Assembly (NCBI RefSeq): GCF_963676685.1
Contig: NC_092353.1
Coordinates: 27,590,001-27,654,000 of the forward strand
DNA length: 64,000 bases
Origin: Mytilus edulis
Lineage: Eukaryota
Reading direction: 5' to 3'
In this document: piece by piece, positions 11,201 through 59,985 of the stretch
How positions within the stretch are numbered: position 1 is the first letter of the stretch
Layout: every line of letters starts with the position of its first letter
The notes under the pieces: model-generated
The model's database searches: none
Told to the model about the DNA's origin: nothing
What the model saw: only the letters and a program-made list of their open reading frames with translations
Made by a program: the position numbers and the translations under genes

Positions 11201-11349
11201 AAAATAAAATTAAACATCTGTCATATCTTTTAGTGGTTATCAAATGAATGTCATTTTTGCAGGACCAGTCAATTTTAAGTCGGACCAGTAGATTTTAAGT
11301 CCACTAGTCCGGCTGGCCAGTACATTAAAAAGCTTAAATTCGACTCCTG

Positions 11350-11914: not shown

Positions 11915-12707
11915 TAAACAACCTACAAATGAAATTCACAAGAAACGATAAAACTACGCTTGAATATATTTTTGTACATCAAGATATACTATCAATGAAG
12001 TTGTAAATGGGAATCATAAAAGAAAAGTGACCATTTTCAGAGTGTACAATAGCATGTATGGCCTTAGCTTCACAAGAATCCTTATAAGGAAAGGTATATT
12101 GCAGGTATTTCCAAGTGTTCCACTGAATCCCTTTCTAAAGTTCTTACTTCCATACTCACTGCATTCAAAGAAGGACTTCAGAAACATTCCGAAATTGCAT
12201 ATTCAAGAAGAGGTGTTAATCAGATGTGGATACTGAAAAATTTGAAAGAGTTATTGGTGAATTTACAATCGCAATCATTTAAACATTGTACCAACATTAA
12301 AACCTTTGATATTTCAACCGTTTATATCACTATTCAACATACTACACTTACTAAACTTACAGCAAGACTGAAAGTACTCGTCAGCTTATGTTTCTTTAAC
12401 AAAAAGGGCACTAGACGTTTTAATATCTAGTTTTGGGCAGGAATTCAGCTTACTTTGTGAAAAAATCATACAGAGTCATGCAATAAATACACCGAAGAGG
12501 ATATCACTGCCATGCTGAACCTTTTAATTGATGACATATTTGTTGAATTTGGAGGTTTGGTCTTCCAACAGACTATTGAAATCCCAATGGATACCAATTG
12601 CGCTCCTCTACTGGTAGATTTGTTTTTGTATTCTTATGAAGCAGAATGTATCCAAGGGCTTGTTCAGATAGGAGAAAAGAAATTAGCCCAGTCTTTTAAT
12701 TTCACCT
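11915..12707 (+). mobile_element. Penelope-like RT fragment truncated at the duplication breakpoint
   Basis: IKTFDISTVYITI and FQQTIEIPMDTNCAPLLVDLFLYSYEAE motifs. The fragment stops at FNFT, just before the catalytic YxDD position. Confidence 0.85.
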
Positions 12708-13489
12708 CAAAGGCAATGTTTAACAGAAAAGCAGCATTGTCTAGTCCCTGGTTTTACTGGATTACAGACAACTTCCAAAACAATCCAAACAGATTGTACT
12801 TCAAATATGTTGAAATGATATTTTTTCTTGAATTAATTGAATGGAACTTAAAAAATATTTTAACTTTTTTAAGCTTGCTTACAATTGTCTGCTTTTACGT
12901 TAAAACAAATCGAACTTGAACAAAACAAAAGGGGGTTTAGAAAAATGTCCTGTCCCCAAGTACCTATGGTCAATACTTAGAATTACATGTGTGTGCTTGG
13001 ATCATGAAATCATGAAAATACGATTTCTAATATGTTTTTCTTTTATTTACTTGTGCACTATATTGTGGAAGCTCGTGACATTATGAATGTCTCATTTTAA
13101 ATTTTGAATGCATTTTGATATCAGTATGACTCGAGATGGTTGTTAACCAATCAAAATAAATTATTATTTCGTAATGTAATTGTTTAAAATTCTTAACTTA
13201 AAGGTGTTTATTTAAATTGATTGTCTCTAAACTTTTGTGGATTTTTATTTATATGTCCATAAGGTAAGTTTTTGTACATTGACTTTAATTTTTCAACATT
13301 ACCACCAACTGAAGCGAATTCACATCTTCCTATTTCTTATATTTAAAGTATAAAGTTAGACATTTTAAGTAAATGTTATGTCCTTTTTCACATGATTTCT
13401 ATGTTACTTTTCATTCTTTTTTTTTATTAACTATACATACTGTTTGATTACGTTTTGCCCGAACTTACGTTTTCGATCAACAAGTCCAT

Positions 13490-16900: not shown

Positions 16901-17668
16901 ATGATTAATGTTTCTTAGCCAAAAAAATCTAGTTGCATCTCTGTCATTTTTTTGTAGTTCAATTTGTAGAAATGCCTTTTCAATATCAGCAACTACTGCA
17001 ATTTTGTTCATTCGAAAACGCAACAAGAGTCCACATAAATCTTGTAACATTACAGGTCCTCTGTGCAGGCAATCATTCAAACTTTTATTCTCTTGTTTTG
17101 ATTTGGCAGACGCATCATAAACTATCCTTACTTTAGTTGTAGGTTTGGTTGGGTCAACTACTGCATGATGTGGTATGTAATGCTTGATTCCGGTATCCTT
17201 ACTACATTGGTTTGACACCTTTTCTATGATGCCTTTTTTGCACTGGTCTTGAATAATCTCATCATACTTGTTTAATAGGTCAGGATTGTTCTTCATTTTC
17301 TGAAAAAGTGACTTTAGTCTTCCGTATGCAAGTTCCCTATTTTCAGGAAGTTCCGGTAATTTTTCTTTCCATGGCCAGGCTACTTGATATCTTTTCCATT
17401 TTGAGTGAGGTGACAAAGTTACTCAAAGTATTTTCGTCGTCTGATGTATATGGACAATCTTGTATTCCAATAGTTTCCAATTTCCAGAAATCTTCAATGG
17501 AAGGCTTGATTTGTAGACATGTGTCAATTGTAGAGTGAAGACATCATTCTGTTATAGATAATAAGCCATTTACTGTCATGGTCATTTTGTTCTCTTTTTC
17601 TTCATCACTTAATTGTGACCTTCCTGTAAGGATCCATCCTAGCTTAGAGCCAAGTAGATAAAGCCCTT
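13986..17668 (-). pseudogene. pol: Outer BEL pol: RT, Pao RNase H/peptidase A17 region, integrase and C-terminal domain (disrupted)
   Basis: YIPHHAV, ADIEKAFLQI, YVDN, PRLEL, NPADIASRG, H..H...C..C zinc finger, GVDYFGP, SDNGSQF and WMGGFYERLIG motifs. Split across ORFs 15278-17416, 14316-15269 and 13986-14291. Confidence 0.93.
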
Positions 17669-19665: not shown

Positions 19666-22600
19666 TCATTCACTGTCATCATGTGTACTACGTATTTCCA
19701 ACGGATAGAGCTTCACAATCGGACGGTTGGTGATTCCTGTGTCGGTCTTGATAACAGCTGATCGAATGAGTCCATCCTTTCCACGAACTAAATCTTGTAC
19801 AACTGCTAATTTCCACATTATACGATTTGTGTCATTGTGTACTTGTACAATGTCACCTATTTGTATTGTTTGTTCGTTTCTTCCAGATGTACGGTGAAAT
19901 TCACGGAGTGACGTCAGATATTCGTGTTTCCATCTTGAGCGAAAATGGTTGATTAGTTCATTATTTCTCTGTAAATTTTTATTGAGTTTCACGTGCAAAT
20001 CTTCGGAAGTAGCACTGTCAATATTCTGTTCCGATTGGTTGTCAAGTCGACGACCATATAAAAGGTGCGCTGGCGTCAGCGGTTCGGGATCTTTAATATC
20101 AGTAGAAATGTGAGTTATCGGACGATTGTTTAGAGTTCCCTCGATTTCGATTACAATTGTATTCAACATTTCCGTAGTGACACATGACTTTCCTAGTATT
20201 GCTTTAATTGACTTTTTCGTGAGTCCAATTAGGCGTTCCCAAAAGCCTCCAAACCACGGTGCTCGGTTGGGTATGAATTTCCACTCCGTTCCTTGATCGG
20301 CCAGTTTTTCTTGTATTCGGTTGTCTTTGCTTGATCTTGTAATCTTTTCGGCGGCTGCCTTGAAGGTTGTTGCATTATCGGACAACATAATCCTTGGTGT
20401 AGATCTCCTAGCGACAAATCTTTTAAAAGCAAGCATGAAAGACTCCTCGGTTAAATCTGTGACTATCTCCAAGTGTATAGCTCGTGTAGCGGCGCAAGTG
20501 AATAAACAAATATATGTTTTGCTTAATTCGTTCTGTTTTCCTTTTGTATACAAAGCTCCTGTGAAATCAACGCCGGTTACTGAAAAAGGATAATCGTAGT
20601 TGACTCGATCTTTAGGTAGCGGTGGCGGATCGGGTGCGCTGTAAGGCATTCCTGATATTTTAATGCATTGGACGCATTTACGAATTTGTGATTTTACGCA
20701 CTGCCTTATTCTCGGTATCCAATATTTCTGTTGAATATATGCGATTGTACTGTTAAGTCCGGCATGTAAAGTCTTTGTGTGTGCATCCATTACGATTAAG
20801 GACGTAAGACTGTGGTGTGTTGGTAATAACAACGGATATTTAGTACTCTCCTTCACAAGTGCGTTTTGTATTCTCCCGGTAGAACGTAGTAATCCATTTT
20901 TGTCTGTATATAGTTTAAGTTGTCGAACAAGTGGCACTTTTGTCTGTGACGATGAATTCAAGCTTTCAATTTCATCCTTAAATGTTTCCTGTTGTACTGT
21001 TACTATTAGAACTTTTAATGCTTTACATCGCTCCTCAACACTGATAAATCCGATTGACCGTTTATCTTTTGAATTCCGTAAATTCTGTATAAAACGCAAG
21101 ACGTATGCTGTTACTCTAATTGCTTTTTCTAAAGATCTGTATCGTTGTATAGCTATACATGAAATTGTCTGTGTTGAAGCATTTTTACTTTCATCGTCTG
21201 TATTGTCATCACTAACAGTTACCATCGTGCTGCAGTCTTCAATTTTCCTCGTCCATGTCGGCCAATTTTCACGATTTAAAATCCATTGTGGACCGTTCAT
21301 CCATAAGCTGTTATTATAAAGGTGTTTAGCGTAAATTCCGCGAGTTAAGTAATCAGCTGGATTGTCGTCTGTTGGACAATAATTCCATTCAGCATTCTCT
21401 GTTAATTTTCTTATTTCTTTAAGTCGATTTGCTACGAACGGTTTTAAGTTTTTTGACGATTTAATCCAACTCAAAACAATTTGACTATCGCTCCACATAT
21501 ACACATGTTCTGTTGTTATGACTTTAAGGAGATGCGTTGCTAATCTGGCGCCGATAAGCGCGCCCATAAGTTCTAAACGTGGCAATGAAATCGGTTTTAC
21601 GGGTACTACTCTGTTTTTAGCCATGACGATGACCGATGAATTTGCTGTAACTAAGTAAGCACAAGCTCCGTATGCTAACTGACTGGCGTCTGTGAAAATA
21701 TGTAGCGACGTTTTCTCGTTAATAACTCCTTCCGTTAACATTCGTGGAAATACTATTTTGGTACCCTCCTCGATATCTAAAGCTATTACCTGCCATTTAC
21801 TTCTCTGTTCGTCGGACAAACATTCATCTCAATCCAATTTTGCCTTCCATAAAGTCTGCATAAACAGCTTAGCTTTCACCGTAATTGGCGTGATTAATCC
21901 AAGGGGGTCGAAAATTCTAGAAGATGTGCGCAAAACCTCACGTTTTGTTATCATTTTGTTCTTTTCCATAAATTCAATCTGTTGAAATTTCAAATCGTCG
22001 GATTCCCTATCCCATCTCATGCCTAAAATTTTGACTATGTCGTCATTGTCGCCGATCTTGTCTTGTCCTGCGACGTTCTGTAATTCCGTACTATTAGAAT
22101 TCCAAGACCGTAAGTTGAATCCTGCCTCTGACAATAATTTTCTTGACTCCGTGTAGAATTTTAAAAGGGATTGTTTATCTGTAAAACTGGTTAGAACGTT
22201 ATCCACGTATAAATTTCTCTGTAATTCTGTTGATGTAGTTGACGGATTGTCTCTAAAATGTTTCATTAGCGTGGCGCTTAACATGAATGGCGAACAGGTG
22301 GCGCCGAAAAGTACAACCTTAAACCGGTAAGTAATCAAACGGCTTTCTGTGTCCATGGGATTCTCTAACCAATAAAATCTTGTGACATCTCTGTCATCAA
22401 CATCTAATTCAATATGCAAAAATGCTTTTTCAATATCCGCTGTAACTGCATATTTATACATTCTAAAGCGTACTAATATCTCCGTCAAATCAGTCATAAT
22501 TGGTGGATATGTTGCTAGGCAATCGTTAAGACAAGGACTACTGTCGTTCGCTCTACAGCTACAGTTATATACTATGCGTATCGGGGTGGTGACTGAATCC

Positions 22601-24879
22601 TTTTTTACGGGATGATGCGGAATGTAATGAACCTTGTTTGTGCATGTACTTTCATCATATACCTTTTCAATGAATCCTCTTTGTTCTTGATCTGTAATTA
22701 TTTCACCATACTTTCGGAACATCTCGGGATCCTTCTTAAGGCGACGAATAACGCTTTCCGTTCTGCGTTTTGCGATGCCTTCATTTGTCGGTAGTTCTGG
22801 CGCATTCTCTCTCTATGGTAATTTCGTAACATACTTATTATTTTTCTTCGTAATGGAGGTTTGTAAGTAATTTTCAATTGATTCAGCTAGGTCTGGATCA
22901 TTTTGTTCTTCAGCGTCAATTCCCAACGATTCAAGCTGCCAAAATTTTTCAAGATCGCACTCTTCTTGTTTGTGACATACTAGTATATTCATCATTGAGA
23001 AAGATGCATTACTGTTTCGCGTAGGGACAGGACCGGAAAGTAAATATCCAATTTTCGAGCTAACTGCGGTTGGACCGTTTCCACGCACTATTTTGTCTTG
23101 AACTATGTCCCAGTAGAAATCACCTCCAATTAATAAGGATATTTCAAATTGCTCTCCATCCATGACTGGGTGTGCTAATTGTAGACCACGTAAATATGAA
23201 AACTTCTGCGTGATTCCTATGTTGTGGGTTTGAAGTGGTGAAGCAATGGTTGGTACAATTAAAACTTTAATCGGGATTAAATCTCCTTCTGTAGACTTAA
23301 GATTAATTGTTGTTTTGTCAAGATTTCTCACCTTTTTTGTAGTACTTCCAAATGTAGCTATACTTAATGTTTCAGACCCTTCTTTTTTAATGTCCAATTT
23401 AGCTGCTAGTTCTTCGGTTATAAACGAGCGCTGAGCTCCCTCGTCAAAGAGTATTCTTGCATCTATACATGTATTTTTGTGAACGACTGGACTGAATGCG
23501 GTTTTCAGTAAAACAGTGGACCTTTCTTCGCTAGCGGTATACAACATAGAAGTTTCTGTGTCTACTTTATTTTGCGATTGTTCAGTTTCAATATGATGTT
23601 TATTTGAGTACGAGTTCTGTTTACATAATGAAGAGTGATGCTTCCGGTGGCAACACTTACACGTATTCTTGGATTTGCAATCGGCTATTTTATGCTTACC
23701 TAAACAATTAAAACATAACCTCTTTTCTTTTATAATGGCTACTCTTTTATCGTGATCTATGACATCTTTACATTCGTTAGGCCAGTGGTTTCCGTCACAA
23801 TATGTGCATTGTTTCTTCCGATTCGAGTTGAATAATTTGTCTGTTGTGTATATCGGACGGGTTTTATCTGTAGTTACTCGTTTAACGCCTGTTATGAAAT
23901 TTGCGCTAGGTGTTGCGGTTGAATACGTCTGTGTATAATCTCCGTAGCCGGACTCTTGAATAGAAATCTCTTTACCTATCGCGTTTCGAAGCGATTGAAT
24001 ATTCCAACTGTCGCTCCCGTTTTCTCGTGTTATATTTTTTCGTACTTCATGCGGTATCTTCCCGAGAATTACTGGTATCAATAACGATCCGTACATTTCC
24101 TGACATTGTCCGAGAGACTCTAGACCCCGTATGTAGGCTTCCGATTTGTCATGAAATGTTCTCAAACTTTCTAATGTATCATGTGGTGCGGGTATATCAA
24201 GTAGTGCTCTCATATATGCATTAATGATTTTATGTGGTTGCCCATAGCGGTTTCTCAATAATTCAATTGCTTTGTGGTAGTTTGGATTTGTCATGGTCAA
24301 TCCTGAAATTACGTTTGCAGCTTCAAATTGAAGCAATGAGTTCAAGTACGAAAATTTCTGAATGTCAGTTAATGTGTGATTGTGATGAATCGTGGTCTCG
24401 TATGAATCCCAGAAATATTGCCATTGTAGAATGTCTCCATTAAAATTGGGAAGAGATAGCTTTGGTAGGCGATGGTTATTACTTGAGGTCGAACTTGACT
24501 GAGATAACTGCTGACTTGTGTGAGTAAAAGGGTTTGTGTACGGAACAAACTCTGGTGCGTTTGAATCTAGTATAGAAGATGTTGCGTTTGTTACGGGCTT
24601 TAAGAACTTCTTAAATTTTCGAATTTTACCCTCTAAATCTAAATAATACTCATCTGTTTCAAGAATTTCATTTGTAATATCTTCTGATTCGACTGCATTT
24701 AATATCTGTTCGTCTATTGAGGCTAACGTCTTCTTTTTCTTCTCAATTGCTTCGAGCAATGTTGATACTTCCTCCGTGTCTATTTCTGAATCTCCGATGG
24801 CTTCCTCCAGTTTTTTAAAAACTTTTGTTACTGCTGCTTTGTTCCCCGCTCTCAAGGATTTTAGTCGGCTGATGTCCAT
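19666..24879 (-). pseudogene. gag-pol: Inner BEL single gag-pol ORF (~1737 codons) broken only by two in-frame stops
   Basis: ORFs 22813-24879, 21829-22722 and 19666-21819 share one frame. Motifs: LFDEGAQRSF protease, LYVDN RT, FTDAS/PRLEL/WSDS RNase H, GVDFTG/SDNA/FWERL integrase. Confidence 0.95.
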
Positions 24880-24891
24880 TCTCTCCGTTTG

Positions 24892-24905
24892 AAGTCACGG
24901 CACCA
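24892..24905 (-). promoter_or_regulatory. Primer-binding site complementary to the tRNA-His 3' end
   Basis: Minus strand TGGTGCCGTGACT, 1 nt inside the 5' LTR. Confidence 0.85.
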
Positions 24906-25087
24906 ATGTAGATTATTGCGTTGCGTTGTGTATTTGATCGTAAGCTAACTAAGGCGTTAAAGATAGAACTACGTCTGCCATTATACGTTTCTATTCAATA
25001 CAACATAAAGTATAACAATTACGCGATGTCACAAAGATAGCGGCCGTACCGCAAAAAGGTACGTTAATATTAGCGCAATTCTTAACA

Positions 25088-27050
25088 CCCTTGTTGAATT
25101 TCTATTTTCTGTTGCAATATGATATCCAAATAATAATCATTTCCGATAAGAATCTCTATTGTTGAACTTTCTAAGCAACTGGGCAGTGTGTCAGCAAGTT
25201 GCAGATTGTTACATAAGTATTTCACATTTTCACATACATCCATTTGTAAAGGTCTTCTTAGTATTGATCCTGTTATCTTAGGAACAACATTAGCATCAAT
25301 AAGCATACAAACTCCATCTTTTAGTCTGATCTTTAATGACACCTTTTGTGTTCTTAATGTTTTTGGCTTATCTGCACCAAATGTTACAAGAGTTATCCTC
25401 TCTCTAGCTTTCTTCTTCAAATTTAATCTCTTGGCCAAATTTTCTGTTATATATGTTCGCTGAGATCCGGAGTTCATTAGTAGTCTTACTACTTTTGTTT
25501 CAATAACTTCTGTATTTGACACAGTTGTTTGAGCTGTCTGCATCAAAACTATATCTCCGGAGGACAACAACCTATTCTCTGGTACGTTCTCTTCACTTAA
25601 AGCTATTTCACAAATTTCATCAGCTAGATGTGAAACTTCGAATTCTTTCTGTTGAGAGGGAATTGTCTTTGGGCATAGACTTCTATGGTGTCCCTTTTTC
25701 TGTTTGCAATGATAGCATGCTTTTTCAAATTTACAGTCTCTACTAACATGTCCTGGTTTCAAGCATGTATAACAACTATCTTTGATTTTCTGCTTTTTGT
25801 CTTCAATAGTACTGAACTTTCTGCACTCATCACTCCAATGGTGTCCATCACAATATCGGCAAACCATTGAATTTCCACTGCCTGAGCATTTTCCAAATGG
25901 CTTTATTGTCATCAGAGCTTCTGCAGATAAGTGTTTTCTTGGTTGAAAATTATTGTTGTTTGACTGGATTTTAGACTGCTGTTTTTCTTCAGAACTGGGA
26001 CCAGTATGTGTTTCCTTAGACTGACTTTCTGCAGCTTCCCTAGCAGTTAAGCAAAAATGTTAAGTAAGTATTGAAAAACTGTCTTAACTTCCCTACTGTC
26101 CATCTTTCATTGTTACCTTTCTGTATTTCAAGTTGAATCATGACTTCCTTTAGTAGCTTAGATGTTATCATCGAGATGAATACATCTTGGGTTACATCTT
26201 GATGCATTGCGTCCAAACTACGTAAGTGTCGTTCCAAGTCATCATAAAGTCTACGTAGATGTGTAGTTTCATTTGAAGCTGACTGAAGGTTTATTAAATC
26301 TGAACAGTGCTTGTTGACAACAGATTGAACATTTCCAAATCTTTCCTTTAGTATTGAAATTGCTACATCGTAATTTTCATGGGAGAGCGTTAAGTCAGAT
26401 ATAGCAGAATTAGCTGTTCCAAAAAGTTTGCTTTTCAAGTAATTTAATTTCTCTATTTTTGTCAAGCTTTGATTTGTGTGCACTGCTGCTTCCCAAAATT
26501 CTGTCCATTTTAACTTATCTCCATTGTACGAAACTAGGTCTAATTTAGGAAGTTTAACTGCACTTACTGTTGAAGGTTGACTTTTCCTCTGTAATTCTTG
26601 GAGTTGTAACTGTTGAAACTGTAATATCTGTTCTTGCATTTGTGTCTGTAATTGTAATAAATGCTCCACCTTGTGGTCCGTGGCCGTTTCTGTTTACTTA
26701 ATATCTGTAATTTTATCCTGAATTTCTTCCTCGAATATTTTTAATTCGTCTAAGCGCTGTGTTATACCGTCAAGCAATTAAAAATATATTTCACTTGCCT
26801 TTTTAAATTTTAGAATTTCACCCTCGTTATCTTCTTTCTCTTCTAATATAAGTGAAATTTCTTTCGTACTATCTTCAAGTTTTGCTACAAAATCCTTTAA
26901 TCGTCTCTTTGCTGATAAAATTTGCCTTAATTGTGTTGTCACACTTTCATCTTGAATCCCTTGTGCTATTATATCTCCACTTTTATCTAGTTCTTTAGCT
27001 AACAAATTATTGTACCTTGTACAGAGTCCTTTCAAATATGAGACTGCCAT
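25088..27050 (-). pseudogene. gag: Outer BEL gag (DUF1759-like, Cys/His knuckles) and aspartic protease (disrupted)
   Basis: VKLPKLDLVSYNGD, CRYCDGHHWSDEC, CYTCLKPGHVSRDC and LMNSGSQRTYIT (catalytic Asp reads Asn). Several stops and frameshifts. Confidence 0.9.
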
Positions 27051-27104
27051 CTTTTCTGTGGTAACTCCTTTTCCGTGTTCTTTATAAATTTTCTTTTCTG
27101 TAAC

Positions 27105-27122
27105 TCCCGGGTTCCGGCACGA
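27105..27122 (-). promoter_or_regulatory. Primer-binding site, tRNA-Phe-like (degenerate)
   Basis: Minus strand tcgtgccggaacccggga vs the tRNA-Phe 3' complement tggtgccgaaacccggga. Confidence 0.7.
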
Positions 27123-27127
27123 TACAA

Positions 27128-27609
27128 TGTGGCGAAATCAGACTAACACGGAATCCTTGTTATATCTTTAATCCAATAACTAACAGTTATTTACAGTATG
27201 TACAGTTTGTAAAAGTTAATAAATACCACATTGGAATAATCCGTCTTTTTCTTTCTAGTTCAAGACAACTGATAATACTTCTATACTTCTGTTACTACTA
27301 TTTTTACAATGACAATTATCCATAAAAACCCTTATCTTCTATACTAAAATCATAAGAACATTCTAAATCTAGAACAAATTATAATTAACTAGACTAAGAA
27401 AAATGATAAATATTCTATTTTTAGTAAAAGGGGTAAATTCCGGAAGTTGTCAACACTTTCTTGAGCATAAATATACACAAGTACTTTCACTATCCATCTA
27501 GAATATTCTAGAATGATTCATTTACTATAATTAAAATAACAATGTAATTTTATATACACAATGTCAAAATAAAAGTCCAATGTCTTTATAATTGCGTACT
27601 TTCGCAACA
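27128..27609 (-). repeat. 5' LTR of outer BEL element
   Basis: Direct repeat of 13490-13962, followed by TSD tccat. Confidence 0.95.
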
Positions 27610-36129: not shown

Positions 36130-37305
36130 TGTTACTTTGAATAAAGCTAATACTAACAATGACCACTGTCCTTTCCTCGCTCTTGATATCTATATCATTA
36201 ACAGGAAGCTTAATACAAAGAGATGATTCTTCATTTCCTATCGTTAATTATTTATTTTTAGATGGAGACGTTACCTTGTCACCATCTTATGGTGTTTATA
36301 TATCTCAACTTGTACGATTCGCTCGTGTATGTTACAACGTTTTATATTTTAGCGAGAGAAATTTATGTATTACTGAAAAATTATTACACCAGGGTTTTCG
36401 ATATCACAAACTAGTCAAAACATTTACTAAATTTTATCATCGGTATAAGGAAATAATTCGTAAATATAACTCAACATGCAGATATCTCATACGTTCGGGT
36501 ATTTCACATCCAATCTTTTATAGTAATATTCTTTACAAAGCACAAAAATGTCAATATTCACATCAAAAGCTTACAAAAACTTTAAACAGACTTATTAAGA
36601 AGGGATATAGTTACGATACTGTTGTCAGGTCATTAAAGATTGCATATTTTAATTTTAATATTGATTCACTTATAGGGTCTTTGCATCGGAACTAAACACA
36701 TGTATTTAAATAAAAAAACAGCAATTGGCATGGCACGGGTTATGTTCTTCTCATATATTTTATGAAAGTATGATACTAAACCCCTAACGGGAGAGATTGT
36801 GCCTGATATTCATATGATGAAGACTTAATCTTTCAATCAGTTTAATTGAGGTCTGGAGCTGGCATGTCAATTAACTGCTAGTAGTTTTGTTATTAATGTA
36901 TTATTGTCATTTTATTTATTTTCTTTTGTTACATCTTCTGACATCGGACTCGGACTTCTCTTGAACAGAACTTTAATGTGTGTATTGTTATGCGTTTACT
37001 TTTCTTCATTGGCTAGAGGTATTGGGGGAGGGTTGAGATTTCATAAACATGTTTAACACCGCCACAATTTTTGCGCCTGTCCCAAGTCAGGAGCCTCTGG
37101 CCTTTGTTAATCTTGTATGATTTTTAATTTTGATTTCTTGTGTATAATTCGGAGTTAAGTATGACGTCCATTATCACTATGCTGAAGGACGCCTACTGGT
37201 GCGGGAATTTATCGCTACATTGGAGACCCATTGGTGGCCTTCGGCTGTTATCTGCTCTATGGTCGGTTTGGCTTTGACACATTTCCCATTTCCTTTCTCA
37301 ATTGT
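36130..37305 (+). mobile_element. 5'-truncated Penelope-like retroelement (RT thumb with no C-terminal endonuclease, Naiad-like) plus 3' UTR
   Basis: RDDSSFPIVNYLFLDGDVTLSPSYGVYISQLVRFARVC...LLHQGFRYHKLVKTFTKFY. The ORF ends at 36695 with no GIY-YIG domain. Confidence 0.8.
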
Positions 37306-38935: not shown

Positions 38936-40149
38936 CTTTATCACACTCTGCTGAAAAATACCAAATCCATTGATTACATGCTGTGTTGTTGATAATATCG
39001 TCATATTCCAATTTGATACGTTTATATTGTTACCTAAAACTTACTACTCATATCCGCCATGACATACTGTAACCACTGAACATAGTTGGTATTATTGTAG
39101 AAACATTAATTTTCGTGGGGTTAAAATTTCGTGGTTTTGTCTCTCTGTAAGATTTCATGGGGATTTAATTTTGTGGTTTCCTTAAACTGGAAGTGGTTTT
39201 ATATGGAAGTTAAATTTTCGTAGGGGTTTTAATTTCGTGGATATATTCTTTCCACGAAATAAACGAAATAAAATCCTCCACGAAATCGATAGTCCAACTT
39301 TACAATTATATATTTTAACCATGACAATCAATGGCCCGAATTTTGCTTTGATATACTATAACCACTGAAAATAGGTGTTATATTTTAACAGACAAATCGA
39401 TATGATAACCATCGACGATTAGTTCCGTTTGATATCACAGACAATCAACTGCCCCATTTTTTCTTCACACACTATAACTACTATTACCAACAACAATCAA
39501 TGACTCCCATTGGCCTCTACATTTATTAAATAGCTGACTATATTATTTTACTGTATTACTGGATACATTTGTATTGTTACATACATATTTGTATTGCTGA
39601 TACATGCTGTAATTGATTAACTCTAACGGTAGTTTATTACTAATAGTAATGATTTTTACTTTTTATTGCTTATAATAAAATGGTTTATAACCAGTTGTTC
39701 TTTCATTAGATCATCAAAAATCGACTTCCTGCTAAATACATAAAAGAAAATGTGGTATGAGTGCCAATGAGACAACTCTCCACCAAAGTCTTAAAAAGAT
39801 AAACAATTGAAAACACTTAAACGTTCATATAATTAAGGAAACATTGGTTGGTTGTCACCTTTGATCTAGAGGGACATAACGATATCATTTATTCTTCCAA
39901 TATAAGCGACAATATTTACATTTTATAAATTTACATTTTTTTTTATAACAAAACGCTGGAAAAAGTAGTTATTTATGGTATTATTACTTTATTATTCTGT
40001 TTTAATGAAGTCAAACAGTGTCATGGCCAGCTTTGAACGGAGCTTCTTGTGGTTTCCATGCCTACCATCATTTTACGTATTGGTGTTTTTTTTTTAATTC
40101 GGAAGCTTTTTCGAATAAATTTCAAGAATATATTTTCAATTGGGTTTAA

Positions 40150-43100
40150 ATAATAGTTATCAAAGGTACCAGGATTATAATTTAGTACGCCAGACGCGCG
40201 TTTCGTCTACATAAGACTCATCAGTGACGCTCAAATCAAAATATTTATAAAGCCAAACAAGTAAAAAATTGAAGAGCATTGAGGATCCAAAATTCCGAAA
40301 AGTTGTGCCAAATACGGCTAAGGTAATCTATGCCTGGGATAAGAAAATCCTTAGTTTTTCGAAAAATATAAAGTTTTGTAAACAGGAAATTTATAAAAAT
40401 GACTACATTATTGATATTCATGTCAACACCGAAGTGTTGACTACTGGGCTGGTGATACCCTCGGGGACGAAACGTCCACCAGCAGTGGCATCGACCCAGT
40501 GGTGTAAATAGTTATCAAAGGTACCAGGATTATAATTTAGTACGCCAGACGCGCGTTTCGTCTACATAAGACTCATCAGTGACGCTCAAATCAAAATATT
40601 TATAAAGCCAAACAAGTAAAAAATTGAAGAGCATTGAGGATCCAAAATTCCGAAAAGTTGTGCCAAATACGGCTAAGGTAATCTATGCCTGGGATAAGAA
40701 AATCCTTAGTTTTTCGAAAAATATAAAGTTTTGTAAACAGGAAATTTATAAAAATGACTACATTATTGATATTCATGTCAACACCGAAGTGTTGACTACT
40801 GGGCTGGTGATACCCTCGGGGACGAAACGTCCACCAGCAGTGGCATCGACCCAGTGGTGTAAATAGTTATCAAAGGTACCAGGATTATAATTTAGTACGC
40901 CAGACGCGCGTTTCGTCTACATAAGACTCATCAGTGACGCTCAAATCAAAATATTTATAAAGCCAAACAAGTAAAAAATTGAAGAGCATTGAGGATCCAA
41001 AATTCCGAAAAGTTGTGCCAAATACGGCTAAGGTAATCTATGCCTGGGATAAGAAAATCCTTAGTTTTTCGAAAAATATAAAGTTTTGTAAACAGGAAAT
41101 TTATAAAAATGACTACATTATTGATATTCATGTCAACACCGAAGTGTTGACTACTGGGCTGGTGATACCCTCGGGGACGAAACGTCCACCAGCAGTGGCA
41201 TCGACCCAGTGGTGTAAATAGTTATCAAAGGTACCAGGATTATAATTTAGTACGCCAGACGCGCGTTTCGTCTACATAAGACTCATCAGTGACGCTCAAA
41301 TCAAAATATTTATAAAGCCAAACAAGTAAAAAATTGAAGAGCATTGAGGATCCAAAATTCCGAAAAGTTGTGCCAAATACGGCTAAGGTAATCTATGCCT
41401 GGGATAAGAAAATCCTTAGTTTTTCGAAAAATATAAAGTTTTGTAAACAGGAAATTTATAAAAATGACTACATTATTGATATTCATGTCAACACCGAAGT
41501 GTTGACTACTGGGCTGGTGATACCCTCGGGGACGAAACGTCCACCAGCAGTGGCATCGACCCAGTGGTGTAAATAGTTATCAAAGGTACCAGGATTATAA
41601 TTTAGTACGCCAGACGCGCGTTTCGTCTACATAAGACTCATCAGTGACGCTCAAATCAAAATATTTATAAAGCCAAACAAGTAAAAAATTGAAGAGCATT
41701 GAGGATCCAAAATTCCGAAAAGTTGTGCCAAATACGGCTAAGGTAATCTATGCCTGGGATAAGAAAATCCTTAGTTTTTCGAAAAATATAAAGTTTTGTA
41801 AACAGGAAATTTATAAAAATGACTACATTATTGATATTCATGTCAACACCGAAGTGTTGACTACTGGGCTGGTGATACCCTCGGGGACGAAACGTCCACC
41901 AGCAGTGGCATCGACCCAGTGGTGTAAATAGTTATCAAAGGTACCAGGATTATAATTTAGTACGCCAGACGCGCGTTTCGTCTACATAAGACTCATCAGT
42001 GACGCTCAAATCAAAATATTTATAAAGCCAAACAAGTAAAAAATTGAAGAGCATTGAGGATCCAAAATTCCGAAAAGTTGTGCCAAATACGGCTAAGGTA
42101 ATCTATGCCTGGGATAAGAAAATCCTTAGTTTTTCGAAAAATATAAAGTTTTGTAAACAGGAAATTTATAAAAATGACTACATTATTGATATTCATGTCA
42201 ACACCGAAGTGTTGACTACTGGGCTGGTGATACCCTCGGGGACGAAACGTCCACCAGCAGTGGCATCGACCCAGTGGTGTAAATAGTTATCAAAGGTACC
42301 AGGATTATAATTTAGTACGCCAGACGCGCGTTTCGTCTACATAAGACTCATCAGTGACGCTCAAATCAAAATATTTATAAAGCCAAACAAGTAAAAAATT
42401 GAAGAGCATTGAGGATCCAAAATTCCGAAAAGTTGTGCCAAATACGGCTAAGGTAATCTATGCCTGGGATAAGAAAATCCTTAGTTTTTCGAAAAATATA
42501 AAGTTTTGTAAACAGGAAATTTATAAAAATGACTACATTATTGATATTCATGTCAACACCGAAGTGTTGACTACTGGGCTGGTGATACCCTCGGGGACGA
42601 AACGTCCACCAGCAGTGGCATCGACCCAGTGGTGTAAATAGTTATCAAAGGTACCAGGATTATAATTTAGTACGCCAGACGCGCGTTTCGTCTACATAAG
42701 ACTCATCAGTGACGCTCAAATCAAAATATTTATAAAGCCAAACAAGTAAAAAATTGAAGAGCATTGAGGATCCAAAATTCCGAAAAGTTGTGCCAAATAC
42801 GGCTAAGGTAATCTATGCCTGGGATAAGAAAATCCTTAGTTTTTCGAAAAATATAAAGTTTTGTAAACAGGAAATTTATAAAAATGACTACATTATTGAT
42901 ATTCATGTCAACACCGAAGTGTTGACTACTGGGCTGGTGATACCCTCGGGGACGAAACGTCCACCAGCAGTGGCATCGACCCAGTGGTGTAAATAGTTAT
43001 CAAAGGTACCAGGATTATAATTTAGTACGCCAGACGCGCGTTTCGTCTACATAAGACTCATCAGTGACGCTCAAATCAAAATATTTATAAAGCCAAACAA

Positions 43101-44130
43101 GTAAAAAATTGAAGAGCATTGAGGATCCAAAATTCCGAAAAGTTGTGCCAAATACGGCTAAGGTAATCTATGCCTGGGATAAGAAAATCCTTAGTTTTTC
43201 GAAAAATATAAAGTTTTGTAAACAGGAAATTTATAAAAATGACTACATTATTGATATTCATGTCAACACCGAAGTGTTGACTACTGGGCTGGTGATACCC
43301 TCGGGGACGAAACGTCCACCAGCAGTGGCATCGACCCAGTGGTGTAAATAGTTATCAAAGGTACCAGGATTATAATTTAGTACGCCAGACGCGCGTTTCG
43401 TCTACATAAGACTCATCAGTGACGCTCAAATCAAAATATTTATAAAGCCAAACAAGTAAAAAATTGAAGAGCATTGAGGATCCAAAATTCCGAAAAGTTG
43501 TGCCAAATACGGCTAAGGTAATCTATGCCTGGGATAAGAAAATCCTTAGTTTTTCGAAAAATATAAAGTTTTGTAAACAGGAAATTTATAAAAATGACTA
43601 CATTATTGATATTCATGTCAACACCGAAGTGTTGACTACTGGGCTGGTGATACCCTCGGGGACGAAACGTCCACCAGCAGTGGCATCGACCCAGTGGTGT
43701 AAATAGTTATCAAAGGTACCAGGATTATAATTTAGTACGCCAGACGCGCGTTTCGTCTACATAAGACTCATCAGTGACGCTCAAATCAAAATATTTATAA
43801 AGCCAAACAAGTAAAAAATTGAAGAGCATTGAGGATCCAAAATTCCGAAAAGTTGTGCCAAATACGGCTAAGGTAATCTATGCCTGGGATAAGAAAATCC
43901 TTAGTTTTTCGAAAAATATAAAGTTTTGTAAACAGGAAATTTATAAAAATGACTACATTATTGATATTCATGTCAACACCGAAGTGTTGACTACTGGGCT
44001 GGTGATACCCTCGGGGACGAAACGTCCACCAGCAGTGGCATCGACCCAGTGGTGTAAATAGTTATCAAAGGTACCAGGATTATAATTTAGTACGCCAGAC
44101 GCGCGTTTCGTCTACATAAGACTCATCAGT
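40150..44130 (-). repeat. Tandem array of ~11.2 apparently identical 355-bp units (non-LTR retrozyme, family 1)
   Basis: Exact 355-bp period (identical ORF calls at 40269, 40624 ... 43819). One type I hammerhead per unit on the minus strand. Confidence 0.96.
40187..40230 (-). ncRNA. Type I hammerhead ribozyme (repeats every 355 bp: 11 complete, a 12th truncated at 44130)
   Basis: Minus strand GCGUCA-CUGAUGA-GUCU(UAUGU)AGAC-GAAA-CGCGCG-UC/UGGCGU: intact core, stem I GCGUCA:UGGCGU, 4-bp stem II, palindromic stem III ACGCGCGU. Predicted GUC cleavage between 40193 and 40192. Confidence 0.92.
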
Positions 44131-44250
44131 AAATAAACTCATCATGGATACCAGAACTAAAATTTTACACTTACGCCAAACGCGCGTTTCGTCTACAAAA
44201 GACTCATAAGTGACGCTCGAATCAAAAAATGTTTAAAAGGCCAAATAAAA
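44131..44250 (-). mobile_element. Retrozyme family 2 fragment with a mutated hammerhead, abutting the array
   Basis: Minus strand gcgtca-CTTATGA-gtcttttgtagac-GAAA-cgcgcg-TT-tggcgt. Flanks match 9170-9293. Confidence 0.8.
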
Positions 44251-50537: not shown

Positions 50538-51054
50538 GTCTTCGTAGAGGTCCGCGTTCATCGAATTTAAACACTGTCGAGTTTAGTTTACATAAGAATT
50601 TTAAATATATACGTATCCGTCCGATCCGTGCATAAATTTAATTTACTGATCGATCGCTGACCGTTGTCACGGTAACTCTCACATAGGTTTATATTTGACT
50701 TATCTGACGGATCCTATGGATCACCGATCACCGATCACTCATCGATCAGGCAAACATCCGTCACCGATTATTCACCAATCAGTCAAGTTCACGTCAAACA
50801 GTAACGCCTAAGGTTGCAAGTACTGTATATCTCTACCAAAAGACAACAGTTATATCCTCTTTCTCTTTTGGATTTAAACAAATACATTCTTAATATATGT
50901 TATATATAATGTTTCTTTTTTCTGAAACAAACTTTAGAAACATTATATATAAATTTCATTAAATGGATTGTTTGGTCAATGTTAACCAATCAGCTATTTG
51001 CGACCTATGTTTACGTAGGGACTTTCTAAAGTCCCTGGTTTACGTTTACTGTAT

Positions 51055-51601
51055 TAGCTGTATTTTGGCAAAACTTTTAGGAATTTTGGTTCTCAATGCT
51101 CTTCAACTTCGTACTTTATTTGGCCTTTTTAACTCTTTTAGATTCGAGCGTCACTGATGAGTCTTTTGTAGACGATACGCGCGTCTGGCGTATATACTAA
51201 ATTTAGTCCTGGTTTCTATGATGAGTTTATTTACAACCACTGGGTCGATGCCACGGCTGGTGGATATTTATTTCCCCGAGGGTATCACAAGCCCAGTAGG
51301 CAGCACTTTTTGTGCTGACATAAATTGTCATTGATATGGTTATATTTAGAAATTTACTATTTACAATTTTTTAAATTTTTTGAAATACTAAGGCTGTTCT
51401 ACCGCAGGCATAGACTACTTTAGCTGTATTTAGGCAAAACTTTTAGGAATTTGGGTTCTCAATCCTCTTTAACTTCGTACTTTATTTGGCCTCTAACTTA
51501 TTTAGATTCGAGCGTCACTGATGAGTCTTTTGTAGACGAAACGCGCGTCTGGCGTATATACTAAATCCTGATAGTCCTGGTATCTATGATGAGTTTATTT
51601 A
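51055..51601 (+). mobile_element. Retrozyme family 2, 1.5 units (364-bp period) with two hammerheads
   Basis: Hammerhead motifs start at 51146 (GATA variant) and 51510 (canonical CTGATGA-gtcttttgtagac-GAAA-cgcgcg-TC-tggcgt). Confidence 0.88.
51512..51555 (+). ncRNA. Type I hammerhead ribozyme (intact core)
   Basis: GCGUCA-CUGAUGA-GUCU(UUUGU)AGAC-GAAA-CGCGCG-UC/UGGCGU. Confidence 0.88.
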
Positions 51602-52790
51602 CCGCATATTCCCTCCCCCTTTTCTTTTGAATATTATTAGTTTTATTATTTAACAAAATGATAGATTAAAATATTCATATCTGTTTTTTCAAATAACATC
51701 TTGCACTGTACAACGCTGTAAGTGTATATATGCTAGTATCTTATTACAATCCTATCAACATCAGATATAACCAATTGAATAAACAGCTATCCCTCCTTTT
51801 TATGGGCTTACTGTAAAATTTCTGTTTCCCCCTACAAAGTTTTGTCTGAATATACACAAACATTAACTGTAACTTCAACTTACTGTACTGCAGGTATTTG
51901 AAAGTTTAATTCAGTCTAAGTTAAACTTTATAATAAACGAAAATACAGTTTATCACTAGCAGGTATTTCCACACAACATGGAGCCAAAATGCACATTTGA
52001 AAATGATCAAATAATCTTCTAATAATTGTTTACTATATCTCAAGCTGAAAACACAACCAGATCCAAGCATTTTTATAACAGTGATTGAAACCTCAAGTGC
52101 TATCGAACTGCTGGCATAACTGTTGTCCCGACTGCTATATGGAATGCTAAGATAAATGCTACGACAAATGATAAAATGAATGCTAAATATATAAGACGAA
52201 GAAAACGTAAAACGAGAAAAGTTGATCAAACTGCTATTAAATTGAATGCTTAGAATGCACATTAAAAAAAACCCCACTTTTTTAAACGTAGCATAGGAAA
52301 ATAATAGGTAATATACCAGGCCACCAACGAATATTGTCTTCAATATGGAATATACATATACCAAAACTTAACAAAACGAAAAAAGCCACAATGCCATATT
52401 GAAAGATCCAGTATATAGACTAGTTATATATACGAGTCTAAATTGAAAACTACGTTCAAACCTATGATTGTGTTGGATAAGAACCGCAATTTTTATACGT
52501 GTGCATGTAAAACAAATTTCGTTGTAGAAGGGTCTAAATACAGCACAAACAACATTTTCCAAAAGACCAAAAAAGTGAAGAAGTATATTTAAACAAAACG
52601 CATTTGACTAACAGGTCGATTAACTGATGTTCTTTAACCCTGCTGACTGCCATTGGCGATTGCCAAATAAAATTGATCACAGGATGTGACAAAATGGATC
52701 TTAATATAAATTTAATATTAAACAGAAAACAAGTAACTTGTGGCCACGATGTTATGCCACAAACATAAGGGGTTAAAAATTTTTTTGTAC

Positions 52791-53069: not shown

Positions 53070-54470
53070 ATATATATTGAAAACAAAGTACTTAATCTAT
53101 TGACTGTGAAGACAATAACAATGAAAACCTAGGAGTAAACAAAGACTCACAAAGCCAAAGGACATTTACATCAACAGTTATGAATAATAAATAAGAAACA
53201 ACACGAGCTCAACTAAAAACCAGAAGTGAAATCAGGTGCTCATAACAGCCAATCAGCTCATGATGGCGACCGTAAAATTTCTTAAGTGATGACCTTAATT
53301 TGATTGATTCATAGCCCTGTCTTAGCAAGTTTTGAGATATCAGTATTCCTCGTTCAACAAAATCAACGTACTTTGAGCTAGCTGTAGAGCAACGTATCAA
53401 TTGAGAAACATATACTCCATATGCTGGTGCCGCTGGGATGTTGCTACACAGAAATGGAAAATCGACTATAGGAAAATTATGATCATCGCCTTTGTCATAA
53501 ATTTTGGTATTCAAGCTTCCATCAGTAGTCATTTCGAGAAAAAGGTCTAAATATGAAGCAGATTTATCTGTGTCGGTAGTTTCTTTAATTTCAATTTCAC
53601 TTGGATATATTGAATGTAAGTGATCACTGAATCTATTACTAGTATTATTACGAGACAGTACATTATCATTATACCGAAAGGTGAAATTAAAAGACTGGGC
53701 TTATTTCTTTTCTCCTTTCTGAACAAGCCCTTGGATAAATTCTGCCTCATAGGAATACAAAAACAAATCTACAAGTAGAGGTGCGCAATTGGTATCCATT
53801 GGGATTTCAATAGTCTGTTGGAAGACCAAACCTCTAAATTCAACAAATTTGTCGTCAATTAAAAGGTCCAGCATTGCAGTGATATCCTCTTCGGTGTATT
53901 CATTGCACGACTCTGTATGATTTTTCACAGAGTAAGCTGAATTCCTGCCCAAAACTAGATATTAAAACGTCTAGTGCCCTTTTTGATAAAGAAACATAAG
54001 CTGACGAGTTCTTTCAGTCGCGCTGTAAGTTTAGTAAGTTTAGTATGTTGAATAGTGATATAAACAGTTGAAAAATCAAAGGTTTTAATGTTGGTACAAT
54101 GTTTAAATGATTGCGATTGTAAATTCACCAATAACTCTTTCAAATTTTTCAGTATCAACATCTGATAAACACCTCTTCTTGAATATGCCATTTCGGAATA
54201 TTTCTGAAGTCCTTCTTTGACTGCAGTGACTATGGAAGTAAGAACTTTAGAAAGGGATTCAGTGGAACACTTGGAAGAACCTGCAATATACCTTTCCTTT
54301 ATAAGGATTCTTGTGAAGCTTAGGAAGCCATACATGCTATTGTACACTCTGAAAATGGTCACTTTTCTTTTATGATTCCCATTTACAACTTCATTGATAG
54401 TATATCTTGATGTACAAAAACATATTCAAGCGTAGTTTTATCGTTTCTAGTGAATTTTCATTTGTAGGTT
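53070..54470 (-). mobile_element. Penelope-like (Naiad-like) RT pseudogene, 5'-truncated
   Basis: RYIAGSSKCST, IKTFDFSTVY, IPMDTNCAPLLVDLFLYSYEAEF, FRYNDNV (catalytic YIDD decayed) and DFPFLCSNIPAAPAYGVYVSQLIR. Frameshifted. Confidence 0.88.
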
Positions 54471-54635: not shown

Positions 54636-55042
54636 ATGCAGTTTATACACAGATGTAATACAAAAACAATACCATGGTCCATCGTATTTACGGTTCTGTT
54701 TAGCTAAGTCATAAGCATACTACATATTTTCTTTATTTGTGTCCATGACTGGTGTGCGGTTCATCAATTAAGTAATTTAACATATACTAAGTATGCTGAC
54801 AATCACTGGTTGTATGTACAAAGTATAACGTCAGATCTTAAAACCGCTGTCGAGTATGCTTTTGTCACAAATCCAAGGGATATATCACGAGATATAATAA
54901 ATAAAGTACCAAACAAATTTATTTTTAAACCAAACCATATGTCTGATGGATTAGTAATTATAGAAGTGAATAAAGTAACTAAATGCACATCAGCCTATTA
55001 CAGAAATTGCCCATCGTATAACTGAATAATTTGTTTTACAAT
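54636..55042 (+). pseudogene. 5' half of TupA-like ATP-grasp gene, copy 2 (stops; truncated at 55043 by a CAGGGGTCG hAT-like fragment)
   Basis: MQFIHRCNTKTIPWSIVFTVLFS*VISILHIFFICV...YADNHWLYVQ...FIFKPNHMSDG...KCTSAYYRNCPSYN*. Confidence 0.8.
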
Positions 55043-57625: not shown

Positions 57626-59054
57626 GTTTTCTTCTTAACACATCTTTTCAAAACACACTCTCTCTAATTTTATCGAATAACGAATACTTTATTTCTCATA
57701 AAAATACCTGATGAAAAAAATTCACCATTAAATTATCTGAACAATTATAGTGACAAGCTAGTGATTTACATATTGAAATATTATAAAATGTGTAAGTATA
57801 TGTTAATCCCATAGGAGCAATACATTGTACACGTCCGAGACGTCAAATAAGCACGTAGAAAATAGCTTGCCTGGAGTTCATGATAATCAGTATATATTAT
57901 TCAATATCATTAGATAAAAAAAAAAATAAAGTGCCAATGACACGGAGTTCAAATGTCGTGTATGTGAGTAACTACAGTGTATCAGTAATCGTATGGCTTT
58001 CAATAATGAGCGAAAAATTCACCTCATAGAAGTTGAGGTTTTTCATGTCAATCAACGAAAATCTATTCGACATAAATGACCATTTTAACATCGCTCTTGA
58101 TAAGAAAAATATATATGAACAACAGCTTTAGAGGAAGAGATAATTTTACACTTTTGAATTACTTTGTAAAATATAATTTGTAGCAAAAACTTAATATGTG
58201 ATAATCTCATATATAATTAAATGATTAAATATTGATAACAAGATATCATAGATAGGTGAAAGATACCAGAGGATCATTTGTCCTAAAAACACATTACCCC
58301 CTTGTAATTATTTTTTTTCTCCCTAACAACGCCATGAACCAAAAACAAACAAACAAGAATTGACAAAAAATATCATAGAAAACCAAATATTGACAAACAC
58401 GAACCCGTTGAAAATGCGAGGAGGGTTCTCGTGCTCTCCGGAAGGGTAAGCAGATTCTGTACCACATGTACTTATTTTGGCAGTTTTTGTATTTTGAACT
58501 TGATGTAAGAAGTTTGAAGCCATATTGCTAAATGAATGATGCAAGACGAAATTCTGAGACTGATCTCTGACAGACTGATGACTTACAAAGGTTGTTATTC
58601 AGTAGATCTAATAGAGTCTACAAAAGACTCATCAGTGACGCTCGAATCCAAAAAAGTTAAAAAGGCCAAATAAAGTACGAAGAGCATTCCATTTACAACT
58701 TCTTTGAGAGTATTATTTTTGAGAGTTGTACATAATGTGCAATAACAAAGTCAAGACTAGTTTTATTGTCTTTTTTTAATTTTTACTAGCAGATCTCTGT
58801 TTGTCATATAACTCGTTCAGTTCCTTCTGATATACACTCCTGGTTTTCAAGTGGTTGGGTTGGAGCATTGCTGATGACGATGCGGAGGTTGTTTTTTTAA
58901 CATTCAGCTCCTAGGTTTCTACAGATATACATATATGGCTGTCAAGTTGATAGGTTGGAGCTTTGCGATGACGATGAATCAAAAGAAGCTCTTCGGAAGG
59001 ACTGAATCTGTAAAGGCTATATTCCGATGAATTGACGCAGAAATATTGCTTATT

Positions 59055-59985
59055 ATGCAATTTATACACAGATGTACAACAAAAAGAATAAAATGGTCCA
59101 TCGTGTTTACGATTCTGTGTAGCTTAGGCATAAGCATACTACACATTATCTTTATTTGTGTCCATCACTGGTGTGCGGATCATCAATAAAATAATTTAAC
59201 ATATACCAAAGATACTGACAAGCACTGGGCAAGATTGTATGTACAAAGTGTAACGCCAGATCTCAAAACCGCTGTCGAGTATACTGTTGTCACAAAAGCA
59301 AAGGATATATCACAAGATATTATAAGTAAATTACCAAATAAATATATAATTAAACCGAACCATATGTCTAGAGGATTTGCACTTATTGAAGCAAATAAAG
59401 TAACTAAAAAACACATCAGTCTATTACAGAAATTGCCCATCGTGTAACGGAATAGATTTGTTACAATGCTTGCAGAAGATATTCGATCTATGGTTACAAA
59501 TTGTGTTCAACCCTGGAAAAGAAAAATACTACCAGTATATTCCACCTAAATGTATGTTTGAGGAGTATCTAGGCTCTAGTGGGATTCCTATGGACTATAG
59601 AGTGTTCACATTTCATGGTAAAGCCTATTTCATTCAGGTTGCCGAAACAAAAGATTGACGTCATACTCACGACTTTTTCACTCCAAAATGGAAGCGGATT
59701 CAGATGAGGGAGGTACCAGAAATATATCCCATTAACTCTTTAGTTAAACAGCCTCCATTCTTTCATGAAATGTTGGGACACGCAGAAATCTTATCTCAGC
59801 CATTTATCATGATGCGTAATGATTTCTTTGCTTTTGATGACCAGTATTATTTTGCTGAATTCACTCCATCACATCATGGCTGTAATGGCAGATTTATTCC
59901 ATCAGTTATAGAGAATTATTTTATTTTGGTTATAAACAACCCGTCTGAGTATTCTGACCCGGAAGTTATATTACAGTTGAAGTAA
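59055..59985 (+). pseudogene. Full-length but disrupted TupA-like ATP-grasp ligase gene with N-terminal signal anchor (~309 aa reconstructed, intronless)
   Basis: MQFIHRCTTKRIK-WSIVFTILCSLGISILHIIFICV (TM), DKHWARLYV, LPNKYIIKPNHMS, YIPPKCMFEEYL, PMDYRVFTFHGKAYFIQV, EMLGHAEILSQPFIMMRNDFF, YFAEFTPSHHG. Lesions: TAA near 59187, +1 frameshift near 59408, TGA at 59656. Confidence 0.85.

Follow-up and report, generated by a model that had tools for sequence, protein, structure and literature searches.

The 355-bp tandem array at 40152-44130 of the window, by which we mean the whole 64,000-nt stretch of Mytilus edulis DNA that was analysed, is best explained, with a probability of about 0.58, as a very recent insertion whose unit combines a hammerhead ribozyme with a Naiad leader hairpin, likely written by a Naiad reverse transcriptase (RT)/endonuclease in a single pass on a circular RNA. 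The class of element is already known, and the main finding is the Naiad signal in the unit. This signal bears on the enzyme behind the mobility of animal retrozymes and on the feature that such an enzyme recognises.

A previous sequence-only reading had described about 11.2 identical units, and we observed 11.21 units with an exact period of 355 and 0 mismatches over 3,979 bp. The array, its ends and its flanks are as follows:

40152..44130, minus strand: retrozyme array of 11.21 identical 355-bp units, 38% GC, with the RNA 3' end at 40152 and a 5' truncation at 44130.
40152..40192, minus strand: tail of 41 nt beyond the final cut, stopping where the next hairpin would start.
40147..40153, plus strand: TAAATAA, left copy of a target-site-like duplication, sharing 2 nt with the array.
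44130..44136, plus strand: TAAATAA, right copy of the duplication, sharing 1 nt with the array.
44130..44250, minus strand: older truncated copy of a 364-bp retrozyme subfamily, with a decayed hammerhead core (CTTATGA, GTT).
39878..40150, no strand assigned: left flank, an old dispersed repeat with 73-75% identity to at least 39 other places.

The RNA 3' end of the array lies 41 nt beyond the cut site and its RNA 5' end at phase 323; we infer that reverse transcription started at the end of the tail, at 40152. The 7-bp duplication has a length reached by 1 of 89 shuffled partners, and it exceeds the 4 bp above which retrozyme duplications lie when present. On its 5' side the array adjoins the natural 3' end of the decayed 364-bp-subfamily copy. 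We considered this copy as a template switch within the same event and rejected the idea, since the copy shows decay and it is the new array that the duplication encloses. The unit is non-coding, the array holding no frame of 100 aa, and the RT fragments of the 64-kb window matched no Pfam family. We found no empty allele: the left flank has no allelic counterpart in the assembly, and none of four contig sets included the unique right flank at 100% likeness, a result that is uninformative on an empty allele. The TAAATAA duplication, the older subfamily copy at 44130-44250 and a Naiad-type hairpin in every unit were absent from the sequence-only reading.

Each unit carries a hammerhead on the minus strand:

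40187..40230, minus strand: type I hammerhead, the 3'-most of 11 complete ones, repeated every 355 bp, with a predicted cut after GUC at 40193/40192 and the stem III palindrome ACGCGCGU.
44092..44130, minus strand: twelfth hammerhead, with the core kept and the stem I 5' strand lost through truncation.

Twelve minus-strand cores (CTGATGA-stem II-GAAAC-GCGC-GTC) were located at 40193-40224 plus multiples of 355, the last at 44098-44129. The claim of an intact ribozyme in every unit thus applies to the 11 complete ones, the twelfth being clipped, while the predicted cut position and the truncation inside a ribozyme at 44130 were both right. The Rfam model Hammerhead_1 (RF00163) matched 40187-40230 on the minus strand with 33 bits (E 2.8e-6); a scan at the gathering threshold was empty because this is one bit below the gathering score of 34. 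At E values up to 5 Rfam returned the hammerhead only, and the hairpin was assigned to no family. In folding predictions, two copies co-fold through the palindrome ACGCGCGU as a double hammerhead at -30.1 kcal/mol, compared to -6.0 kcal/mol for the single hammerhead fold of the monomer, whose minimum free energy is -9.3 kcal/mol. The short stem III had been taken to imply dimeric cleavage: these energies favour the double form, but one cloned mussel repeat is reported to cleave at about 0.1/min (PMC7229834), so that dimerisation is likely to help cleavage and may not be required.

We then considered the family as a whole. The exact 39-nt hammerhead core occurs 6,709 times in the 1.37-Gb assembly (14 large contigs) and 0 times in the control, and the junction across the cut site is letter-perfect at 6,709 places, the pattern counting exact ones only. 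For the insertion footprint, we used 56 consecutive chromosome-1 regions with an exact core, corresponding to 57 insertions, selected with a pattern that demanded only +7; four loci chosen as multimers (L152-L155) stand outside the 57. These insertions have a median length of 216 nt and a maximum of 1,741 nt. The 3' ends fell at +38 to +45 nt past the cut in 53 of the 57, while the 5' ends were spread over phases 1-351, with one at the cut. Duplications of at least 5 bp flanked 23 of 90 insertions, compared to 11.4 in 300 shuffles, none of which gave so high a count; this comparison excluded three irregular loci, two duplicates, and five loci in which the 3' end was non-standard or an internal deletion was present. 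No poly(A) tail was found at the retrozyme ends. This footprint is that of target-primed reverse transcription starting inside the RNA, on a template intact across the cut. The fixed 3' end, the scattered 5' ends and the duplications do not fit a satellite grown by unequal exchange only, and together with the hammerheads they bear out the proposal of a retrozyme in place of a plain satellite. The family also has the features of metazoan non-LTR retrozymes, namely tandem units of 150-450 bp, GC below 50%, a type I hammerhead, non-coding sequence and dispersed copies. The two mussel hammerhead families are both present in this genome, the second with a unit of 350 bp, and there is also the 364-bp subfamily; both of these carry the same Naiad-type hairpin and the same 3'-end position. 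Within this abundant, known mussel family the locus is young and unremarkable, and its insertion is very recent.

A second element of the unit, at phases 45-107, resembles the start of a 1,053-aa GIY-YIG-first frame (L157):

40441..40503, minus strand: Naiad-type leader hairpin, 63 nt, in 11 copies (the last at 43991-44053), with 55 of 63 positions identical to the leader of Naiad family C.

A short hairpin and ATGAA come after it, an order also found in the Naiad leader. The unit and Naiad C are identical at 61 of 71 positions at the leader, the sole match between them and not the relation of a unit derived from the pLTR of a Penelope-like element (PLE); the differences from the Naiad C leader within the hairpin include compensatory changes. 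The same bulged hairpin was predicted for the retrozyme, Naiad B and Naiad C, with z scores from -2.6 to -3.4. In an alignment of nine sequences, 96% of cells were paired and 8 of 23 pairs had changed on both sides, a value reached by 0 of 500 shuffles, a control that is lenient for nine related sequences such as these. For the Naiads themselves, 3' ends within -4 to +5 of the hairpin foot were seen for 22 of 25 family C matches and 6 of 7 family B matches; for family A, 18 of 30 matches ended at -8 to +1. The remaining matches were read-through into the ORF or breaks farther upstream. Anchored mapping gave one end window common to three retrozyme and three Naiad families. A terminal cis-element and an end position are thus common to the retrozyme and an intact Naiad of the same genome, as expected of partners. 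The location of the hairpin beside the common end point likely identifies the enzyme that copies retrozyme RNAs into the genome. From its sequence, the unit appears to consist of a hammerhead, a Naiad leader as the putative recognition signal and an AT-rich spacer, and we do not read it as a pLTR remnant because Naiads are without hammerheads. The earlier proposal of a recent insertion through a Penelope-like RT is supported and, by the hairpin and the end position, narrowed to the Naiad clade. We also evaluated the hairpin as an HDV-like ribozyme cutting at its own foot and rejected this on inspection, as it forms one nested hairpin, the ends vary in position by about 8 nt and RNA reads continue through the foot.

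Three intact Naiad families were recovered in this genome by a GIY-YIG search followed by a protein search: A (1,053 aa), B (1,007 aa) and C (1,000 aa). The start of family A resembles the published Naiad_Mgal. Naiad C is intact and young, with many 1000-aa frames scoring alike and 138 exact leader cores. Its motifs comprise an N-terminal GIY-YIG with an upstream cysteine motif, CxC, GxKY, DKA and a C-terminal RT; they were read directly, the Pfam scores being below the cut-off. For each of A, B and C, the 3' UTR of one copy was inspected and contained no hammerhead core, in agreement with published Naiads. At the 5' end of one full-length Naiad C copy, which is 99.7% identical to another copy, the 83-nt leader unit is present 23 additional times without differences and without any ribozyme, and the unit recurs with the same boundaries at a second locus. 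Other ribozyme-free tandems were a 201-nt mini-Naiad and three full-length Naiads in a row. Because the leader stands 24 times on a young Naiad C copy, these results suggest that a single event by the Naiad RT can yield long multimers free of differences, and that multimers can be reached by routes other than a hammerhead circle.

We tested how the 11.2 units arose by following their variants, with eight short fetches replaced by longer ones and low-complexity phases left out of the variant counts. A diagnostic 47-mer of the present variant occurs 13 times in the assembly, 11 times here and once in each of two 1.6-unit loci, and we found with it no long source array. The array differs from these 1.6-unit sister loci at two fixed positions, and in both cases its allele is widespread in the family. 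Such alleles make up 41 of 1,065 possible substitutions, and inheritance from a template fits the two differences better than the ageing of a seed. Both sites adjoin T runs and may be recurrent mutations. Among the other arrays, L031 has 6.8 units without polymorphism, L032 has 12 units with singletons only and L051 has 15 units. Variants within arrays are mostly rare alleles, and therefore arrays usually begin from one template, with L034 as the exception. By contrast, 3 of the 15 arrays of at least 1 kb (L051, L052 and L053) have clear blocks of common variants: in L051 variants recur every three units, in L052 two neighbours have five variants in common and L053 shows blocks of three. These arrays therefore grow or homogenise post-insertion. 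The length of 3,979 nt has a probability of 6e-7 under an exponential fit, 1e-4 under a log-normal fit and 0.6-4% under a power law, and so is admitted by heavy-tailed fits only. The length and homogeneity of the array had been called notable; its identity is indeed perfect, but L031, L032, L051 and published 62-mers temper this description, and its length is not unique. Likewise, a single rolling-circle event is favoured without being proven by unit identity, because 3 of 15 arrays were later duplicated and the Naiad machinery makes hammerhead-free multimers.

We consider synthesis on a circle in one pass the most probable origin, at somewhat better than even odds, and we weighed it against other accounts. 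The same element and the same driver could have left a short insertion, of 1.2 to a few units, that later grew by unequal exchange or slippage. Most insertions are below one unit (median 216 nt), the variant blocks of L051, L052 and L053 show later duplication, and local amplification has been invoked elsewhere (bioRxiv 10.64898/2026.07.22.740005). However, the present array is variant-free over 3,979 bp, ends included, while its 1.6-unit sisters carry about 2-6 private changes, L032 has singletons only over 12 units, and the two fixed differences are family-common alleles, so that we judge later growth unlikely. A single event that used no circle, in which the RT would have jumped repeatedly on a cleaved, linear monomer or copied an uncut multimeric transcript, seems less probable still. 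The hammerhead-free leader repeats of Naiad C at two loci with the same boundaries are in its favour, as is the anole element, for which uncleaved RNA was the main in-vitro substrate (PMC11167929). Against it stand the exact cut-site junction at 6,709 places, the 5' ends that are not piled at the cut (1 of 57), the lack in the assembly of a long source array of the present variant, and the observation that mussel retrozyme RNA is mostly circular (PMC7229834).

Two further accounts concern the driver and the assembly. We consider it very improbable that another retroelement, such as a hammerhead-bearing Neptune, Nematis or Poseidon PLE or a LINE, drove the insertion and that the hairpin serves as an internal promoter or survives as a Naiad relic and does not bind a protein. 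Intact canonical PLE frames do exist in the genome, vertebrate retrozymes are related to the pLTRs of hammerhead-bearing PLEs (bioRxiv 10.64898/2026.07.22.740005), and the hairpin foot, where the 83-nt leader repeats begin, may be the 5' end of the Naiad transcript. Nevertheless, the two-anchor motif is absent from the canonical PLEs among 16 long GIY-YIG loci, the retrozyme ends lack poly(A) and lie within a few bases of those of Naiads, and the paired changes indicate an RNA structure; promoter and binding roles can also coexist. A search for canonical PLEs as the source of the unit gave no match in the bodies of 16 long and 30 short GIY-YIG loci, a weak negative since BLAST also missed the Naiad A hairpin. 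Finally, zero differences across 4 kb of assembled sequence could in principle be a consensus artefact affecting copy number or identity. This is scarcely credible, as unit-level differences are kept in other arrays of the same assembly and an X16 contig spans the left junction with no difference. Variant-specific X16 contigs are also 1,560-1,820 deep compared to 92-99 for the flank, a weak argument given that the variant is found in other runs and that X16 is possibly the source sample.

In the one-pass reading on a circle, a tandem transcript would be cleaved by its hammerheads, probably aided by dimers, and the cleaved monomer would be ligated into a 355-nt circle. A Naiad protein would bind the hairpin and nick AT-rich DNA, and the cDNA would start 1-6 nt upstream of the hairpin foot. 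The RT would then round the circle about 11 times and fall off at phase 323, with a short duplication remaining.

RNA reads were examined for the family; a search across sequencing runs listed no RNA run as a holder. In run X21 (6% read), the depth of first mates over the unit was 1,010-1,440 on the plus strand compared to 184-374 on the minus strand, a bias of about 4-6:1 under an assumed strand convention of the library, while a neighbouring repeat gave 1,120 and 1,301, about 1:1. Run X24 was strand-symmetric. In X21, 570 reads join 40506 to 40152, the unit-unit joint, with no pile-up of starts or ends, and the family RNA is continuous across the cut site and the 3'-end position; junction reads look alike for circles and uncut multimers. 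The reads represent the family and not the locus, with 278 of 8,283 placed reads at 99% or above and a depth of about zero on unique flank. The X21 pattern fits an abundant hammerhead-sense family RNA, circular or multimeric.

More generally, we put at even odds a model in which the 63-nt Naiad leader element, found from mussels to hemichordates and fish, loads a telomerase-related RT and sets the cDNA start just upstream. Mussel retrozymes would then be chimeras that fuse this element to a hammerhead and become self-circularising templates, and the RT would recopy short templates in one pass, with 11 rounds here and 24 on its own leader. A Naiad signal would explain the fixing of 3' ends by hammerhead-free Naiads. 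A named protein (an intact Naiad family), an RNA signal, a predicted start and a 355-nt template are now in hand, and trans-mobilisation and rolling synthesis are therefore testable in vitro; a Penelope-like protein has been observed to start reverse transcription within its RNA in vitro (PMC11167929). If the model holds, retroelement biologists would be interested in a small portable RNA tag that makes an RT/endonuclease copy circular RNA into DNA.

Known systems are in partial agreement with these results. The non-LTR retrozymes of M. galloprovincialis (Cervera and de la Pena 2020, PMC7229834) are alike in their 350-390 bp, type I hammerhead and two ribozyme families, self-cleave and accumulate as circles, and by description are alike in their thousands of copies, low GC and a proposed RT that copies a circle into tandem cDNA. 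However, the available part of that paper names no specific driver, fixed 3' end or recognition element, all of which point here to Naiads. Published retrozyme arrays reach 62-mers and beyond (PMC7229834; bioRxiv 10.64898/2026.07.22.740005). The vertebrate retrozymes (Li, Clavereau, Pollet, bioRxiv 10.64898/2026.07.22.740005) are likewise non-autonomous partners of PLEs and range from monomers to long multimers, but those of Xenopus have homology to PLE pLTRs, whereas the homology found here concerns a clade without hammerheads and lies in its leader, immediately after the pLTR; the sampling of that study, as described, has no molluscs. Poseidon PAc of Anolis (Frangieh et al. 2024, PMC11167929) resembles the present case in that reverse transcription begins within the RNA, close to the 5' region of the ORF, targets are AT-rich and genomic ends are fixed. 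It belongs to another clade with another domain order and has its start site 111-118 nt inside the ORF, in an AC-rich stem-loop, whereas the ends here are just upstream of the leader hairpin, and rolling synthesis is not reported for it in the sections available. In the open PMC and bioRxiv text that was searched, we found no sequence link between Naiads and retrozymes.

Naiad PLEs (Craig et al. 2021, PMC8557442) share with the retrozyme 5'-truncated, partly tandem insertions, a hairpin that opens the consensuses and the same 3'-end position. They are 3.4-4.4 kb long, coding and without canonical hammerheads, whereas the retrozyme is non-coding and hammerhead-bearing, with about 70 nt in common. 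A conserved leader structure is not described in the available portion of that paper. A metagenome scan with the hairpin motif gave at least 120 loci, of which 80 were examined (median GC 0.68); one (L313) was element-like, without a hammerhead. In File S1 of PMC8557442, as far as it was available, the motif has at least 11 matches, at least 10 of them heading a named Naiad consensus. The hosts of the consensuses that it opens are bivalves, two hemichordates and one fish, and the flanking stems covary by eye among them.

Naiad tandems without a hammerhead were also observed in the same genome assembly. At L368:~170-5517 (G000:C12:78783500-78793400), a Naiad C element of full length, which shares 99.7% identity with the copy L208, is preceded on its 5' side by 23 additional 83-nt units, all identical and composed of leader only, each spanning from the hairpin foot to just short of the start codon. 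Two extra leader units with the same boundaries were found at locus L369 (G000:C10). At both loci, it looks like the template's 5' end was copied over and over, a pattern that we take to recall telomerase. In addition, L366:490-1050 (G000:C1:68128400-68129900) carries a tandem mini-Naiad with a 201-nt unit made of the pLTR end, the leader and the ORF start, without hammerhead, and this array terminates at the hairpin foot. Since three Naiad C leader cores lie 3,370 bp apart at L367 (G000:C6:87604500-87614400), this locus is a tandem of full-length Naiad C elements.

Internal structure was observed in other retrozyme arrays: variants return at every third unit in L051, and blocks of shared variants are present in L052 and L053. 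The 5' end of the L034 array holds one unit from a different sub-lineage, due to either a template switch or recombination. The metagenome contig L313 (JYMV01024826.1), which is AT-rich, carries a full hairpin of the retrozyme type, with no hammerhead found within 600 bp.

Besides the 40152-44130 array, the window contains four further retrozyme copies or fragments, together with reverse transcriptase (RT) sequences.

Retroelement-related features of the window
51054-51602, +, retrozyme copy of the 364-bp subfamily, 1.5 units, one intact-looking hammerhead core
8967-9294, +, retrozyme copy or fragment
1443-1521, +, retrozyme copy or fragment
58616-58688, -, retrozyme copy or fragment
13986-17422 and 19666-27137, -, frames resembling two LTR retrotransposons, with gag, RT and integrase motifs by eye
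12068-12919, +, decayed RT fragment, Naiad-like motifs
36141-36695, +, decayed RT fragment, Naiad-like motifs
53209-54425, -, decayed RT fragment, Naiad-like motifs

Among the sites noted here, new retrozyme insertions seem often to sit within or next to older retrozyme copies, or within Naiad 3' ends (L032, L033, L218 and window 44130; L131 and L064).

Judging the frames by eye, we presume both LTR-retrotransposon-like elements to be of BEL/Pao type; the one at 19666-24894, with three long frames in succession, is apparently nested inside the other. The first and last RT fragments listed are near-copies of each other, in an inverted pair resembling a segmental duplication that also takes in 11240-11683 and 54708-55025. 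The frames at these last two positions, for which no Pfam match was found, look related to a TupA-like ATP-grasp fragment at 59659-59985 (+; PF14305, E 5.7e-8), a family known mainly from bacteria. Two clusters of near-palindromic tandem repeats with a 21-bp base (2578-3172 and 6051-6573) show higher-order periods of 51 and 146.

Among the canonical Penelope-like elements, L156 and L171 possess an additional downstream frame, two-zinc-finger-like, and L159, L160, L162 and L164 an additional upstream frame of ~420 aa that overlaps the RT frame.
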